A DNA stretch of 64,000 nt from Escherichia phage A5-4: the sequence record OP744025, one strand, 5' to 3'. Shown piece after piece: positions 32,818 through 38,280 of the stretch. Position numbers and translations under genes: made by a program. A model generated the notes under the pieces. The model was given only the letters and a program-made list of their open reading frames with translations. It had not been told where the DNA came from and made no database searches. Numbering within the stretch: position 1 is the stretch's first letter; every line of letters starts with the position of its first letter.

Positions 32818-33277
32818 TATTTATTTGGATACCGAAACGATTTTCGTTAGTGGAAAAGAAACCATTTTCCATGCGGCGAATCTCTTCTTTCATCACTTCC
32901 TGCATCGTTAATTTAAGGATTTCTTTGTTTAATTTTGGCTTAACTTCACGGAGCTTGTCAAGAAGTTTTTCCATTTCTTCTTTTACTTTTTCTTCCTCAT
33001 TTTCTACCTCTAATTGGTCCATTGCATCTTTACAAACACAGCAATGGCCCACAACTCTTAAAATATGATTTTGTATAGGTAATGCTTTTCTTCCACAATA
33101 CCCACAAACAATAGACCCACCGGAGGACCGGGCATCTATCGTCAATGTAGGCTTGGCCCCTTCTGCTTGAGAATGCCAAGTCTTTTTACCCTGGTAATCA
33201 TACATAAAGAATTCGTAGGATCTTTCATCAACGTGGTCTTCGAGCATATGTAAAGTTCGTGTATTGAAATGTTTCAT
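32789..33277 (-). CDS. hypothetical Cys-rich protein (zinc-ribbon-like)
   Basis: 162 aa; CGYCGRK...GHCCVC cysteine cluster plus a Glu/Lys-rich helical tail; first gene of the leftward block. Confidence 0.5.
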   Translation of the reverse strand: MKHFNTRTLHMLEDHVDERSYEFFMYDYQGKKTWHSQAEGAKPTLTIDARSSGGSIVCGYCGRKALPIQNHILRVVGHCCVCKDAMDQLEVENEEEKVKEEMEKLLDKLREVKPKLNKEILKLTMQEVMKEEIRRMENGFFSTNENRFGIQINNGEDYVEED

Positions 33278-33397
33278 TTTTAACTCCTCGTCGTTTGTAT
33301 GTGCTAACTATACGAGAACTTGAGGGGAAGATCAATACTTGATTTGCATTTTATTTTCATTATACTGTGCACATCTAAAACGAGAAGGAGATGACAA

Positions 33398-33961
33398 ATG
33401 AGTCAAGATAAAGAGTTAGCCATTGCGATATCCGTAGCTGCTTCTGCCCATGTTGACCAAGTAGATAAAGGGGGGAATATCTATATTCTTCATCCTTTGC
33501 AGGTGATGCAAACATTGCAGCAAAAGGGAAGGGAAGATTTAATGGCAGCAGGAGTTTTGCATGATGTGATTGAAGATACTGAAATCACTATGGAACACCT
33601 CTTTAAAAAGGGGATTTCAGAAAGAACCTTAGTGATTGTCGATGCAGTGACAAAGAAACGTAAGCAATCTTCATCTGATTACCTAGAGGGGATTTTAGAG
33701 AGTGAGGGTGCTTGTCATGTTAAGCTTGCGGATCTTAAACACAACTTAGATATTCTGCGAACTTGTAGCACCACAGAAAAAGACTTGCAACGGGTCAGGA
33801 AGTATGTAACAATGCACTTGTTGATTACGGAGATGGTTGATTGGTATGAAAGTATCGGAAGGTATCTCGATTATTGTGATTCTTTTGCCTATTCTAGCTA
33901 TCTCGACGAACGTAAAGAATTTGTTCAGAAACTTATTAAAAAATGGAAGGAGTTTAAATGA
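33398..33961 (+). CDS. small alarmone hydrolase (SpoT/RelA-type HD-domain (p)ppGpp hydrolase-like)
   Basis: 187 aa; ILHPLQV, AAGVLHDVIEDT and VKLADLKHNL align with SpoT hydrolase motifs (ITHP, LLHDVIEDT, IKLADRTHNMRTL). Confidence 0.75.
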   Translation: MSQDKELAIAISVAASAHVDQVDKGGNIYILHPLQVMQTLQQKGREDLMAAGVLHDVIEDTEITMEHLFKKGISERTLVIVDAVTKKRKQSSSDYLEGILESEGACHVKLADLKHNLDILRTCSTTEKDLQRVRKYVTMHLLITEMVDWYESIGRYLDYCDSFAYSSYLDERKEFVQKLIKKWKEFK

Positions 33962-34491
33962 AAAAGGTATTGAGTATTGAGCCGTTCACAACAACATACT
34001 TTGACGATTTGGAACGTCATGGTGATTATGGGGTACAAGACGCTGATGGTTGGAAAGAATTCCCTGAAGAAACAAAAGGTGACATTACAAAGCTCGGTTG
34101 TAAGATCAATGGATCTGAACCAAAAGGTGTTTACACCATGTTTTCTTTCCTTGAAGCTATGAACCCAATGTACAAGGGAGATCGGCAATTTGGTTTTTCT
34201 TTTGCATCATTCCTTACTTGTAGCTGTGGTCATGGGGGTTGTGCAGGCTATCATGATAATGTGGTTATTCGACGTAAAAAGAATACCGTGATGGTCATGG
34301 GTAAAAAGGAAGATGGTTATGACGAAGGTGTTGTATTGACAGGTGAATCTGTTGTATACTTCGATAAAAAGCAGTGGGACGGTGTTCTAGAACACTACCT
34401 TAAACTCTTCAAAGAAAATCCTGATGGTGTTTTTGAAGATGCGGGTTTTATGTTTACTGGTCGTTGGGGGACTAAAAATTTTTCAAAATAA
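33958..34491 (+). CDS. hypothetical protein (ATGA-coupled to the alarmone hydrolase)
   Basis: 177 aa; CSCGHGGCAGYH Cys/His cluster; start overlaps the upstream stop. Confidence 0.55.
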   Translation: MKKVLSIEPFTTTYFDDLERHGDYGVQDADGWKEFPEETKGDITKLGCKINGSEPKGVYTMFSFLEAMNPMYKGDRQFGFSFASFLTCSCGHGGCAGYHDNVVIRRKKNTVMVMGKKEDGYDEGVVLTGESVVYFDKKQWDGVLEHYLKLFKENPDGVFEDAGFMFTGRWGTKNFSK

Positions 34492-34561
34492 TTTAAAAAC
34501 TTGTTGACTTAAGAAATAGAAAAGATATACTTATCACATCAAAAACAAGAGGAGATATAAA

Positions 34562-35791
34562 ATGCAAGCAACTTATCAACGTATGGACCAAACCATGTTC
34601 AAAAAACGTATCAGTGTTCGTGATATGGAATCACTGATTCGCCTAGGGGCTTCCATCGGAAAGACCGTATTCTTTTTTGGTGGTGCTGGTCTTGGTAAGT
34701 CTGAAAAAGTAAAACAGATCGCTGATTCCATGTTCCCACATCGTGTAGGTAATAACCTTTGTGATGTTCGTCTGTCGGATAAAGAGCCACAAGATATCGC
34801 AGGTATTCCGATTCCGATCTCTTATCCAGATCCGAAAACTGGTAAAGAAGTCACTCGTACCGTATATGCAGTTCCAAACTTTTGGCCTACTGATCCTGAT
34901 TGGGAAGGTATCGTGTTCTTGGATGAACTGCCAAATGCACCATTGGGCACTCAGCACTCTGCATATCAGGTTATTCTTGATCACGTTGCAGGTGAGCATA
35001 AGTTCCCGAAAGGTACTGTGTTTGTAGGTGCAGGTAACCGTGATACTGATGGAGCAGGGACTACTTCTATGCCTGGCCCATTGGTTAACCGTATGATCAT
35101 TGCAGAAGTTGATTATAATCTGGATGTGTGGATCGAAGACTATGCGATTCCGTTCCGTCTGCACCCGAACATTATTGGTTTCTTGAAGCAGTTTCCAGAG
35201 CATTTCTATACTGGTGACGTAGAAAACCGAAGTACTCCGGTTTATTCATCTCCTCGTCAATGGAAAACAGCATCTGACATTCTGTACAAGTATGATGCGG
35301 GTGAGATTAATGAATTTATCGCAGAGGTTGCTCTTGCAGGTACAGTTGGTGAAGGCCTGGAAGTACAGATCCTTGCTTATCATTTACGTGCTAAAGAACT
35401 TCCTCCGATTGAAGATATCTTTAGTGGTGCAGTTGAAGAACATAAACTTGATCGCAGTAAGAACGACCTTGTTTACGTCCTGGCACAAACTGGCCTTCGT
35501 CGCATGGAAGATGAGGTTATGGATAATGACATGACGGATGATAAGTTCCTTGAACGTGCAGGTAACTTCCTTACGTTCATGTACAATAACTATTATGCAA
35601 ACAACAAGGATACAATGATTGCTTTGATCTTGGGCGTGTTCCGTGGTCCAAACGATAAGCCATCTATCCTGACTGTTAACCCGAAACGTCAGAAAATGAT
35701 TCCGCTCATGCGTAAAAGTTGCCCGACTGTTTCTGCCGCAGTTATGGAATACATGACTCGCTATGGTCAACTGATTAAAGAATTCGAATAA
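34562..35791 (+). CDS. MoxR-like AAA+ ATPase (CobS-like)
   Basis: 409 aa; Walker A FFFGGAGLGKSE, Walker B IVFLDELPNAP, sensor-like VFVGAGNRD. Confidence 0.7.
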   Translation: MQATYQRMDQTMFKKRISVRDMESLIRLGASIGKTVFFFGGAGLGKSEKVKQIADSMFPHRVGNNLCDVRLSDKEPQDIAGIPIPISYPDPKTGKEVTRTVYAVPNFWPTDPDWEGIVFLDELPNAPLGTQHSAYQVILDHVAGEHKFPKGTVFVGAGNRDTDGAGTTSMPGPLVNRMIIAEVDYNLDVWIEDYAIPFRLHPNIIGFLKQFPEHFYTGDVENRSTPVYSSPRQWKTASDILYKYDAGEINEFIAEVALAGTVGEGLEVQILAYHLRAKELPPIEDIFSGAVEEHKLDRSKNDLVYVLAQTGLRRMEDEVMDNDMTDDKFLERAGNFLTFMYNNYYANNKDTMIALILGVFRGPNDKPSILTVNPKRQKMIPLMRKSCPTVSAAVMEYMTRYGQLIKEFE

Positions 35792-35795
35792 TCTC

Positions 35796-35824
35796 TTGAC
35801 AACGAAAAACAGTTAACTTAATAT
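35796..35824 (+). promoter_or_regulatory. sigma70-type promoter followed by a stem-loop
   Basis: TTGACA (35796-35801), 17-nt spacer, TAATAT (35819-35824); then imperfect hairpin 35827-35848 and T-run before the HNH gene. Confidence 0.5.
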
Positions 35825-35866
35825 AAGGGCATCTCGAAAGAGGTGTCCTTTTTTAATTTGGAGAAA

Positions 35867-36361
35867 ATGATGGATTTCATAAAAGAAGGATTTTCTTTCG
35901 ACCCCCTTGCAAAGTTTCTACTAAGGAGAAATGGAAGAGAAGTAGGGAATGTAGTAAAGAATCATAAAGGTTATGATAAAGACTATGTACGTGTAACATG
36001 GTCAAGGGAAAGGAAAAGAAAATCTGCGTATGCTCACAGGATCATTTGGGAATTGCATTATGGCAAGATACCTGATGGTTATTGTATAGACCACATAAAT
36101 GGAGATGGTTTGGATAACAGGATTGAAAACTTAAGATTGGCAACTAAGAGTCAGAATGGTCAAAACAGGAAAAACAACAAGAATAAAAAGGATGGTCTTC
36201 CTAAAGGTGTAGTTATGAATCATGGAAAATACACAGGAAGGGTCTATGTAAATGGAAAAAGGTTACAGAAAATTAGTTCCGACCTTGACGAAATAGTCAA
36301 TTGGTTGGAGAATAAACGTAAAGAAAATCACGGTGTGTTCATGAACAATGGAGAACAATAA
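35867..36361 (+). CDS. HNH homing endonuclease (free-standing)
   Basis: AYAHRIIWELHYGKIPDGYCIDHINGDGLDNRIENLRLATKSQN is an HNH signature; start set at ATG 35867 after GGAG; sits between the AAA+ and VWA genes, stop overlapping the VWA start. Confidence 0.7.
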   Translation: MMDFIKEGFSFDPLAKFLLRRNGREVGNVVKNHKGYDKDYVRVTWSRERKRKSAYAHRIIWELHYGKIPDGYCIDHINGDGLDNRIENLRLATKSQNGQNRKNNKNKKDGLPKGVVMNHGKYTGRVYVNGKRLQKISSDLDEIVNWLENKRKENHGVFMNNGEQ

Positions 36362-37899
36362 TGTCAAAAATTAGTCAAGAAGAAAAAGATATGATCGAAA
36401 TGCAAGTCTTCGAAGCTGAACGTATTATTGAAGCTGCAAGTCTTCAACTTATGCGCTTCAAAGCGTTCTACGGGGTGATGCTTTCGTCTATGCCTGTTAA
36501 AAAGGCGACGGAATGGTGTAGTACAATGGCGACTGATGGACGTAACCTGTATTACCATCCAGAGTTCGTTGCAGGTATGACAGAAGAACGTAAAAAATTG
36601 GTACTTGATCGACTTTCCAAATCTGAGAAAGATCCTAAAAAGCTGAAAGAGGGTATTGAGTTTATCAATGTCTTCTATCGTCGAAAGACTGCTCGTGAGC
36701 TTGCTCTTATTCTTGAGCATGAATGTGATCATGTGATCTCTGATCATGCTTCTCGTGGCAAGGGGTTTAATCACGAACTTTATAATATTGCTGCGGATCA
36801 TCGTATCAATACAACGGCGGTTCTTATTCACCAAAAGGGGGATGAGTTAGGTAAGGCATGGTTCCCTGCCGGAGAAAGAACAGTATTCGATAAGAATGCA
36901 GAATTTGGATTTATGGCCTGGTCTTACTGTGATTTCCGATTCAAAGATATGTATACTGAGCAGATCTATGAAATCCTGAATAAAGAGCAAGATGATAAAG
37001 AAAAATCCAAAGGGAAAGGTTCTGGTTCTGGAAGTGAAGAGGGTGATGGTGAAGAAGGTGGTCAAGGTCGTAAAGGTGTTGATCAGCACATGGATCAGAA
37101 TGGTGATCCAGAAGATTCAGAAGGTGATGGTATCGAAGATGCACTAGGAATCGACCGTAAAGCGAAGCCTAAGCAAACAGCAGAGGAACGCCAGTATAAC
37201 GATGGGGTTATGCGTCGAGCCATTGAGAATGCCGTACAGGCAGCAGGAAGCGGTGCACCGGAAGATGCTCGTCGTTTTGTAGAAGCGGCGGGTAAACCAA
37301 AGATTAATTATCTTCGTTTGTTGCGTAAAACTATTGAACGTCTGTTCAAAGATGATGTATCATATCGTCGTTTGTCACGCCGTAGTCACTCGTTAACTCG
37401 GACTCTTCGTGGCTCGGGTTACTTATCTGGACGACAGACGATTGGTTTACCCTCAAAGAATAAACAGAAGACTATTCGTGCAGGTGTCTTCTTCGACGTA
37501 TCTGGATCATTTAACGATGATCTGTTAAGACCAACAATGCGTGAGATTCGTGGATTGTGTAATCTTTACGATGAGTTTGAAGTTACAATGGCTTGCTGGT
37601 CAACAAAGGTTGGTAACATTGAAACGTATACGAAGAAGAATGTGAATGAGATTGCTAACTACAAGATCAAGACCACATTTGGTACGGATGTTTCTTGTGT
37701 GTTCGAGGCATTAGATGAAATGAAAGACCCTATGGATCAGATCATCATCTACACTGACGGTTACTTTGCTGATGTATCCCAAAAGAAAGATTGGGCCAAA
37801 AAGTATGGTAAGAATGTTCTTTGGATCATCCTGGGTCGTGGGTCTTCGTTCACCCCGCCTTTTGGCAAGGCAATTGATTTTGACAAGTATCTTAAATAA
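36361..37899 (+). CDS. VWA-domain protein with N-terminal HExxH metallopeptidase-like region (CobT-like partner of the AAA+ ATPase)
   Basis: 512 aa; HECDH (HExxH) near residue 120; Gly/Glu/Asp-rich linker; C-terminal VFFDVSGSF...IIIYTDGYF consistent with a VWA/MIDAS fold. Confidence 0.6.
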   Translation: MSKISQEEKDMIEMQVFEAERIIEAASLQLMRFKAFYGVMLSSMPVKKATEWCSTMATDGRNLYYHPEFVAGMTEERKKLVLDRLSKSEKDPKKLKEGIEFINVFYRRKTARELALILEHECDHVISDHASRGKGFNHELYNIAADHRINTTAVLIHQKGDELGKAWFPAGERTVFDKNAEFGFMAWSYCDFRFKDMYTEQIYEILNKEQDDKEKSKGKGSGSGSEEGDGEEGGQGRKGVDQHMDQNGDPEDSEGDGIEDALGIDRKAKPKQTAEERQYNDGVMRRAIENAVQAAGSGAPEDARRFVEAAGKPKINYLRLLRKTIERLFKDDVSYRRLSRRSHSLTRTLRGSGYLSGRQTIGLPSKNKQKTIRAGVFFDVSGSFNDDLLRPTMREIRGLCNLYDEFEVTMACWSTKVGNIETYTKKNVNEIANYKIKTTFGTDVSCVFEALDEMKDPMDQIIIYTDGYFADVSQKKDWAKKYGKNVLWIILGRGSSFTPPFGKAIDFDKYLK

Positions 37900-37908
37900 G
37901 GAGGATCT

Positions 37909-38280
37909 TTGAGCGAGTATACTTACAAGTTGTCAGTCGGTAGGCGTGGAGTGGTTATGACTATCAACATGATTAATGAAAGTGCGGAGGCTGTGAAATG
38001 GTGGGCCTCCACCTTTAACGGGAAAGGTTTTACTTTATCTCGTCATAAGGTTGGATCAGGAAAGCCAATAGATCTTGTCAAGGAGGACACTTTCTTGTAT
38101 CCTGATCGTATTGCTGATGAAGATATTGATTTCCTATCTGCTACGGTTGGTAGTTTGTTGGATGAGGAGCCAGACATTGTAAGGTTACTCTCTTTACTTA
38201 CAGCAATGTGGTCAGCAGGTCATGATGAGGAAAGTATGCATACGATGGTAAGGAATACGTTGAGACGTTGGTCTAAGTAA
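37909..38280 (+). CDS. hypothetical protein
   Basis: 123 aa; TTG start 8 nt after AGGAGG. Confidence 0.45.
   Translation: MSEYTYKLSVGRRGVVMTINMINESAEAVKWWASTFNGKGFTLSRHKVGSGKPIDLVKEDTFLYPDRIADEDIDFLSATVGSLLDEEPDIVRLLSLLTAMWSAGHDEESMHTMVRNTLRRWSK

Follow-up and report, generated by a model that had tools for sequence, protein, structure and literature searches.

An AAA+ ATPase gene and its partner separated by an endonuclease gene

Positions 34562-37899 of a 64,000-nucleotide stretch of Escherichia phage A5-4 DNA (record OP744025; the whole stretch is hereafter called the window) encode an AAA+ ATPase, an HNH protein and a protein that combines an HExxH motif with a von Willebrand factor A (VWA) domain. 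This arrangement raises the question of whether the three products form one system or whether the HNH gene has invaded an existing gene pair. The explanation that we judge best overall, and probable, is that the outer two genes encode a MoxR-VWA-peptidase remodelling module of the N4 gp24/gp25 type, and that the middle one is a selfish HNH homing gene inserted between them and standing outside that machine.

The window belongs to an rV5-like coliphage of the Vequintavirinae, and its region 34400-38000 is 99.0% identical, over the full length, to Escherichia phage A7_1 (OP795442). The middle gene is annotated as 'HNH homing endonuclease' in the GenBank record of that phage. The three genes are:

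34562-35791, plus strand: MoxR-type AAA+ ATPase gene (409 aa; open reading frame (ORF); homolog of N4 gp24)
35867-36361, plus strand: free-standing HNH_3 homing endonuclease gene (164 aa from ATG 35867)
36361-37899, plus strand: DUF2201-type protein gene (512 aa; homolog of N4 gp25)

The initial annotation, made from the window letters, had quoted these three ORFs with their Walker A, Walker B and HECDH motifs, and all were found as described. It had also noticed that the HNH stop codon overlaps the start of the VWA gene: TAA (36359-36361) and ATG (36361) share one base. For the HNH gene, an alternative GTG start at 35843 would yield a 172-aa protein (35843-36361). This GTG is an unlikely start because it lies inside the 3' arm of a hairpin and is not preceded by a Shine-Dalgarno sequence. 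ATG 35867 (or 35870) is the more plausible start, since it is preceded by GGAG at 35860-35863 and 35867 is the start annotated in A7_1. On the ORF map of the window, the neighbours of the pair are small ORFs of early type, and the structural genes lie far away.

The ATPase resembles MoxR proteins by profile and fold

The Walker A (GGAGLGKSE, residues 40-48) and Walker B (FLDELPN, residues 119-125) columns of the ATPase are invariant in an alignment of 33 homologs. The invariant residues of this alignment comprise K46 of Walker A, D121 and E122 of Walker B, the sensor-1 residue N159, R177, and R232, which is the sensor-2 arginine. R177 occupies the arginine finger position, immediately N-terminal to strand 5 (residues 178-183). 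The protein matched phrog_1297 'ATPase' with E=2.8e-100, and a profile built from the 33 homologs matched the AAA modules of midasin/Rea1 with E~1e-12, ranking these before Clp and p97. An AlphaFold (AF2) model was obtained with a mean confidence (pLDDT) of 88.7. Foldseek comparison of this model with the PDB returned at the top NorQ, solved with the NorD VWA domain, and CbbQ2, described as 'a MoxR AAA+-ATPase' (E~1e-8, template modelling score normalised to the target ~0.6), followed by dynein, RFC, RuvB and sigma54 activators. According to a DSSP reading of the model, a hairpin (82-103) follows helix 76-80 as a helix-2 insert, and a short hairpin (142-148) precedes strand 151-158.

The curated sequence models weigh against this assignment. 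The ATPase gave zero Pfam or NCBIfam matches even at E<=10. When the 33 relatives were compared with Pfam, only 3 matched AAA_5 and 6 matched bpMoxR, all of them weakly; some relatives showed weak Mg_chelatase matches too. PEV2 gp33 lies above the AAA_5 threshold (24.9 versus 22 bits) and N4 gp24 slightly under it (20.4 bits). Pfam domains were found in none of the 79 database homologs, nearly all of which are encoded on phage contigs of 130-150 kb, and a single-sequence search of the PDB gave no match. With respect to NorQ, CbbQ and midasin, the window ATPase shares only 13-18% identity and carries an extra helical C-terminal region of ~130 aa in its model. The MoxR assignment proposed in the initial annotation therefore held for profile and fold, through midasin, NorQ and CbbQ, and failed for the Pfam AAA_5, AAA_3 and bpMoxR models, which were unmatched. 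The modelled fold, the catalytic residues and the gene context support a MoxR-type ATPase, to which curated sequence models lend no support.

One homolog of the ATPase at 61% identity, P0028 from Salmonella phage SSBI34, bears the NCBI name 'ribosomal protein uS19', which is obviously an annotation error.

The partner carries an HExxH domain and a VWA domain

The partner protein was recognised by two Pfam models: DUF2201_N, described as 'putative metallopeptidase' (E=3.5e-25, 89.6 bits for a cut-off of 23.2), and DUF2201, described as 'VWA-like' (E=8e-8, 32.9 bits for a cut-off of 26.4). All Pfam matches of this protein and of the HNH protein exceed the gathering scores. The same architecture, PF13203 followed by PF09967 from N- to C-terminus, is common to 60 of 60 DUF2201 homologs. 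The protein thus consists of an N-terminal HExxH domain, a disordered acidic and glycine-containing linker and a C-terminal VWA domain with a metal-ion-dependent adhesion site (MIDAS). In an alignment of 36 homologs, HECDH (residues 120-124) and DVSGS of the MIDAS (residues 379-383) are invariant. So are H120, E121, H124 and H129, which form an HExxHxxxxH signature, and D379, S381, S383, T442 and D466, which make up a complete MIDAS motif. The VWA domain, which superposes on the NorD VWA domain and on the midasin MIDAS, combines the DxSxS...T...D metal-site residues with a Rossmann-like VWA fold. These Pfam domains, invariant residues and fold bear out the earlier description of the partner as a DUF2201-type protein with HExxH and VWA moieties.

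The catalytic nature of the N-terminal domain is a separate matter. No solved zincin matched it by sequence or fold, the top fold matches being dominated by the VWA domain, and the comparison with M48/BepA gave marginal sequence matches only (E~0.06); the lack of a zincin match weighs against a peptidase. The prediction of a peptidase is drawn from the Pfam label together with the invariant HExxH, and we regard it as plausible.

The linker, at 36973-37125 (residues ~205-255), is an acidic, Gly/Ser/Glu-rich stretch of low complexity with pLDDT < 50, absent from N4 gp25. In RefSeq and PHROGs (phrog_1314), DUF2201 proteins commonly bear the wrong label 'HNH endonuclease', as seen for N4 gp25 (locus L091:2165-3307), PEV2 gp35 (L090:5086-6312), CR3_gp113 (L008) and phiTE_060 (L007). 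We found no HNH Pfam match in the window DUF2201 protein or in those that carry this label, whose propagation could mislead automated counts of homing endonucleases.

The HNH gene separates the DUF2201 start codon from its native Shine-Dalgarno sequence

The middle gene encodes a protein matching Pfam HNH_3 (E=3.6e-23), phrog_99 (E=1.4e-44) and the PADLOC 'HEase' model, with its HNH motif IDHINGDGLDNRIENL encoded at 36086-36133. It is present as a single copy in the 64-kb window. The initial annotation had proposed to look for its absence between the pair in relatives. In four phages of 94-97% identity (LTH01, A73, UPEC06 and W70), which matched the window in two pieces, the HNH gene is indeed absent and the ATPase and DUF2201 genes are separated by 80 nt of intact spacer. 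Alignment with these phages delimited the insertion and the signals around it:

35796-35824, plus strand: native sigma70-like promoter of the DUF2201 gene, TTGACA-17-TAATAT (scan match), predicted now also to drive the HNH gene
35825-35856, plus strand: GC-rich, terminator-like hairpin with a GAAA tetraloop and a T-run, after the ATPase gene (scan, 11 pairs)
35860-35863, plus strand: GGAG, native Shine-Dalgarno sequence of the DUF2201 gene, taken over by the HNH gene (alignment)
35871-36359, plus strand: insertion of 489 bp compared with the four HNH-less relatives (boundaries +/- 1-2 nt)
36350-36353, plus strand: replacement Shine-Dalgarno GGAG in the HNH 3' end, 7 nt before the DUF2201 ATG (GGAGAACAATAATG)

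The insertion point, flanked by GGAGAAAATGA and AATG, separates the DUF2201 start codon from its native Shine-Dalgarno sequence. In HNH-less phages, the start of this gene reads GGAG-N8-ATG, and in the window the same GGAG is followed by the HNH ATG 35867/35870. Thus transcription of the HNH gene would proceed from the native DUF2201 promoter, and its translation from the native DUF2201 Shine-Dalgarno sequence. The replacement GGAG in the HNH 3' end, together with the overlap of the HNH stop codon and the DUF2201 start codon (TAATG), would keep the DUF2201 gene translated. An equivalent replacement, GGAGGTTGAAATG, is found in CB7 and phiTE.

The promoter and the hairpin had been attributed to the HNH gene itself in the initial annotation. 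This attribution has to be withdrawn. The four HNH-less phages carry both elements without a single base change, ahead of the DUF2201 gene, which assigns them to the ancestral spacer. Moreover, the HNH gene lies downstream of both, between the native Shine-Dalgarno sequence and the ATG, so that these signals are not its own. Certrevirus phages and the metagenomic relatives L093 and L095 keep the order promoter, hairpin, Shine-Dalgarno and ATG, with an equivalent promoter TTGACA...TA(A/G)AAT. The hairpin stems vary in sequence yet pair, and are closed by GAAA or TTCG loops (UUCG in the Certrevirus RNA). This maintained pairing argues that the element is functional. Independently of the scanner call, the hairpin region folds at -19.4 kcal/mol with z = -3.1. 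Because the -10 hexamer abuts the hairpin, transcripts from the 35796-35824 promoter probably begin inside its 5' arm and escape termination, while read-through from the ATPase gene would terminate there.

These features support a free-standing, mobile homing endonuclease gene, whose product is predicted to cleave DNA. The insertion is a textbook case, which will not surprise a specialist, of a selfish gene that parasitises a promoter and a ribosome-binding site and restores downstream translation.

A weak promoter-like site was also noticed in the HNH 3' end at 36285-36313 (plus strand; TTGACG-17-GAGAAT, 9/12 matches), ~50 nt before the DUF2201 start. It might serve as an extra DUF2201 promoter, but such a match is at chance level.

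The spacer is a repeated landing site

Apart from the four close relatives, the HNH gene is absent from more than 10 further lineages: the slot is empty in CR3, F1M1E, L012, L013 and L015 and in six additional lineages (L096-L101). Relatives of the HNH protein were nevertheless detected in 1,416 phage records, in unrelated contexts. The closest, at 67-69% identity, are encoded by the Pectobacterium phages CB7, phiTE and PcCB7V. In CB7 and phiTE, which are Certrevirus phages, the gene (CB7_109, phiTE_059; 69% aa identity) is found in this slot as well, directly before the DUF2201 start codon, with the same promoter-hairpin arrangement upstream and the replacement GGAG(G). These phages differ from the window phage in genus and host, and their flanking DNA is not alignable with the window at the nucleotide level. 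CB7 carries 23 homing endonucleases, compared with the one copy of this HNH in our window. CB7_109 has been listed as a free-standing HNH homing endonuclease common to phiTE and not to CR3 (PMC7344957, Table 3).

The same slot is occupied in a third lineage, the 138.6-kb metagenomic contig L093, by an HNH gene at 63% identity, whereas the sister lineage L095 has none. In DU_PP_IV, the CB7-type gene has suffered an internal deletion of 107 nt and is frameshifted, so that it is annotated as two small ORFs. In Pectobacterium phage P7_Pc (L009:5252-5749), a different HNH_3 gene, with 39% identity over 85 aa, has a start that overlaps the ATPase stop codon. This gene is unrelated and lies upstream of the promoter and hairpin, so that the spacer has been invaded a second time, independently. 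The ATPase/DUF2201 spacer is thus a repeated landing site, and the coexistence of intact, decayed and empty states at one site is what is expected from the life cycle of a homing endonuclease gene.

A divergent tract abuts the insertion

Alignment with the four HNH-less relatives revealed a second trace at the start of the DUF2201 gene:

36361-36465, plus strand: divergent tract, candidate co-conversion tract or endonuclease-immune target region (alignment versus the four HNH-less relatives)

Over these 105 nt the window diverges by 24-25% from all four relatives, and near-identity resumes afterwards. Upstream of the insertion, divergence is 1.5-4.6%, with 1-5 differences in the last 300 nt. 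The tract is one-sided: it starts exactly at the insertion and is the sole interval where the four relatives diverge together, 23 of the 36 positions at which all of them differ falling within these 105 of the 2,111 aligned nt (hypergeometric P=1.2e-22). Most changes are synonymous, the altered codons numbering 8 of 35. Codon 35 is the last of the tract; it reads GCG (Ala) in the window and replaces the CCC (Pro) of the conserved motif EAASLQLMRFKPFYG. Among the 17 alleles inspected and the 36 family members, this K-A combination (Pro35Ala) was confined to the HNH-carrying window/A7_1 and L093/P0081.

From these letters we infer that the tract may have arisen by co-conversion, extending from the endonuclease gene as far as the site that the enzyme recognises or cleaves, and that it may include an immunising substitution. 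HNH would spread in mixed infections by cutting HNH-less alleles within the first ~105 nt of the DUF2201 gene, and repair from the HNH-carrying genome would copy the endonuclease gene together with the adjacent tract. Weighing against this, the tract could be an ordinary recombination patch that abuts the insertion by chance, since these genomes are mosaic, and the K-to-R variant R-P of CB7 and phiTE cannot serve as a mark of immunity because the HNH-less P0088, P0100 and P0103 also have R-P. We also compared the HNH-carrying L093 as a possible donor of the tract. It shares a few positions, including the Ala codon, and was not clearly closer than the HNH-less alleles; no donor was identified among L093 and these alleles.

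The gene pair belongs to a module shared with N4-like and jumbo phages

In tblastn searches of phage records, the ATPase was found in 814 records and the DUF2201 protein in 335, the distant matches being annotated 'N4 gp24-like' and 'gp25-like'. In our scan of 90 loci, 64 have a DUF2201 gene after the ATPase gene and on its strand; these come from Vequintavirinae-like phages, jumbo phages of ~350 kb and N4-like environmental contigs. Six contigs end too early to judge, and 20 loci from rV5/PVP-SE1-like phages have no DUF2201 gene within 4 kb. In such phages (e.g. V18), the DUF2201 gene lies ~3.6 kb from the ATPase gene on the opposite strand. This weighs against the reading as a pair: the separated, divergent genes indicate that adjacency is not obligatory.

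The relationship with N4, of the Schitoviridae, was established by profile alignment. N4 gp24 aligned to the window ATPase profile with an hhalign probability of 99.9% (E=1.9e-36), and N4 gp25 to the window DUF2201 profile with a probability of 100% (E=1.8e-41); N4 gp25 itself matches DUF2201_N and DUF2201 (E=3e-87 and 1e-46). Gene order and strand are as in the window. The window proteins are longer (409 versus 352 aa and 512 versus 380 aa), the extra parts of the DUF2201 protein being a helical insert and the disordered acidic/Gly linker. Genes 24 and 25 of N4, unlike the window pair, are not split by an endonuclease gene, and in PEV2 and many marine N4-like contigs another gene intervenes. 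N4-like phages have 14 core genes, among them gene 24 ('unknown') and gene 25 ('vWFA domain') (PMC4193335, PMC2784036); in N4, both are expressed as middle transcripts (PMC4193335).

The intervening gene of the N4-like environmental contigs is conserved and encodes a protein of ~256 aa (L052:5041-5811, L054:1683-2453, L055:5011-5781, L062:5041-5832, L089:2580-3263). The C-terminus of this protein is an acidic tail (...LLGDDD). It is no endonuclease, lacks a counterpart in the window and shows no relation to PEV2 gp34. A role as a third component is conceivable, or even as a ligand of the MIDAS or a substrate of the pore.

In group 2.2 jumbo phages, a MoxR-vWA-metallopeptidase pair has been described by Iyer et al. 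2021 (PMC7824862). It has the same domain composition, and loci of the RaK2, GAP32 and PBECO4 type were recovered with the window ATPase profile, with an adjoining DUF2201 gene, at about 25-28% identity. The similarity to cellular systems follows the same line: NorQ-NorD, CbbQ-CbbO and midasin provided the best structural matches of the ATPase, the midasin profile match, the VWA superposition and an intact MIDAS. NorD and CbbO differ in having no HExxH domain like the one carried by the window VWA partner. The comparison of the pair with CobS/CobT is a loose analogy only; no CobS/CobT model was present in the Pfam or NCBIfam output for the window proteins, CobN not having been looked for.

The pair and this type of insertion are therefore already known, and the initial annotation, which had recognised a real case correctly, overstated its novelty: the pair corresponds to the N4 gp24/gp25 core genes (PMC4193335) and to the jumbo-phage pair (PMC7824862), and the HNH ortholog CB7_109 is catalogued (PMC7344957). 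The prior record comprises the MoxR labels in phiTE, CB7 and UPEC06, the A7_1 annotation, the CB7 homing-endonuclease table, the N4 core-gene lists and the jumbo-phage survey. Our analysis adds a description of the insertion at base resolution, the putative co-conversion tract with its candidate target region, the second insertion point and the link between Vequintavirinae, N4 and jumbo phages. Literature on 'DUF2201' yielded incidental mentions only, and no essentiality data for N4 gp24/25 were found. Hundreds of large virulent phages carry the pair, therapeutic candidates among them. Since the Vequintavirinae, N4 and jumbo versions form a single ancient module, results obtained in one model phage should transfer to the others.

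Possible functions of the pair and status of the HNH protein

By analogy with NorQ-NorD, CbbQ-CbbO and midasin, and with the general MoxR-vWA model (PMC7159879), the ATPase would form a hexameric ring docking on the VWA domain, whose MIDAS metal site would capture an acidic residue of the target protein. ATP hydrolysis would remodel this target, and the fused zincin-like domain may cleave it. In the window, sigma70-like promoters precede both genes of the pair, the one before the ATPase gene being:

34504-34531, plus strand: sigma70-like promoter candidate, TTGACT-16-TATACT (consensus scan, 10/12 matches)

This promoter is tentative, the number of such sites in the region being no higher than chance. 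As target we favour a host protein or a non-structural protein of the phage replication phase over a part of the capsid or tail, given the early/middle expression context, the genomic position and the apparent absence of the two proteins from the virion. This is the weakest step of the proposal.

The published view of the jumbo-phage pair runs counter to this choice of target, as Iyer et al. favour a role in virion assembly by analogy with the p618/p892 tail-development system of ATV (PMC7824862). The pair would then be a late-acting chaperone-protease that processes structural proteins during assembly or maturation. A MoxR-VWA pair has indeed a precedent in the tail development of an archaeal virus (PMC7159879), and some virion-protein genes lie near the gp24/25 homologs of roseophage RPP1 (PMC4193335). 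Such a role is not obviously compatible with the early/middle context of the window pair, which stands behind sigma70-like promoters among early-type ORFs and far from structural genes. In addition, N4 genes 24 and 25 are middle genes, early transcription (RNA-seq) is noted in the PEV2 record for the genes flanking the gp33/gp35 pair, and neither CB7_110 nor the term 'MoxR' appears in the main text of the CB7 paper, including its virion mass spectrometry table (CB7_108 was not searched). We consider an assembly role possible but doubtful. The pair might otherwise act as an activase or cofactor-insertion chaperone for a phage enzyme, as NorQD does for nitric oxide reductase, CbbQO for Rubisco and CobST in cobalt chelation, with an HExxH motif that is structural or handles a metal. 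The N4 pair does adjoin nucleotide-metabolism genes (dCTP deaminase and others), but no enzyme neighbour is consistent across lineages, and the strictly invariant glutamate of HExxH suggests catalysis over mere metal binding, which makes this role distinctly unlikely.

As to the HNH protein, bacterial MoxR-vWA ternary conflict systems with effector domains exist (PMC7159879) and translation of the HNH gene is coupled to that of the VWA gene, so that the HNH protein might be thought of as the nuclease effector of a three-component system and not as a selfish element. The data already contradict this idea, which retains almost no credibility: the gene is missing from the closest relatives, with an intact spacer, and from most lineages, it is pseudogenised in DU_PP_IV, a different HNH gene lies at another point in P7_Pc, and its relatives occur in unrelated contexts in the 1,416 records mentioned above. 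The ATPase and DUF2201 proteins also gave no meaningful PADLOC defence-system match (DolB, E=0.016, was disregarded). Likewise improbable, although a little less so, is an ancestral presence of the HNH gene at this site followed by many precise losses, with the divergent tract as an unrelated mosaic patch. Occupation of the same slot in three diverged lineages and the strong mosaicism of these genomes would fit such a history. Yet the empty sites of many lineages keep the promoter, hairpin, Shine-Dalgarno sequence and ATG with no scar, the decay that we observed is an internal deletion and not a precise excision, and the tract begins at the insertion as the unique interval of joint divergence from the four relatives.

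Insertion of a selfish HNH gene into a MoxR-VWA-peptidase module can be extended to a more detailed joint reading. The gp24/gp25-type module of three unrelated lineages, N4-like podophages, rV5-like myophages and RaK2-like jumbo phages, would be an early, ATP-driven, MIDAS-targeted protease directed against a host protein, for takeover or counter-defence and not as an assembly chaperone; separately, the HNH family would target a conserved stretch of ~30 nt encoding ...LMRFKPFYG, of which Pro35Ala would be the immunity allele. Taken as a whole, this combination is speculative and unlikely to hold in all its parts.

Neighbouring features

Two genes upstream of the ATPase gene, 33398-33961 (plus strand) encodes a 187-aa protein matching HD_4, a RelA/SpoT-type HD hydrolase domain (Pfam E=8.6e-8), and phrog_990; its homolog in UPEC06 is called 'GTP pyrophosphokinase'. 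From these matches, the product may be a phage small alarmone hydrolase. The orientation of the ORFs switches at ~33277-33398, with minus-strand ORFs up to 33277 and plus-strand ORFs from 33398. The sign of the GC skew flips at the same place and the cumulative skew reaches its minimum near 34 kb; this interval looks like a divergent early-promoter region. Finally, positions 36700-36899, inside the DUF2201 gene, are ~90% identical to A7_1, compared with 98-100% elsewhere, and form a small mosaic recombination patch that distinguishes the window phage from A7_1.

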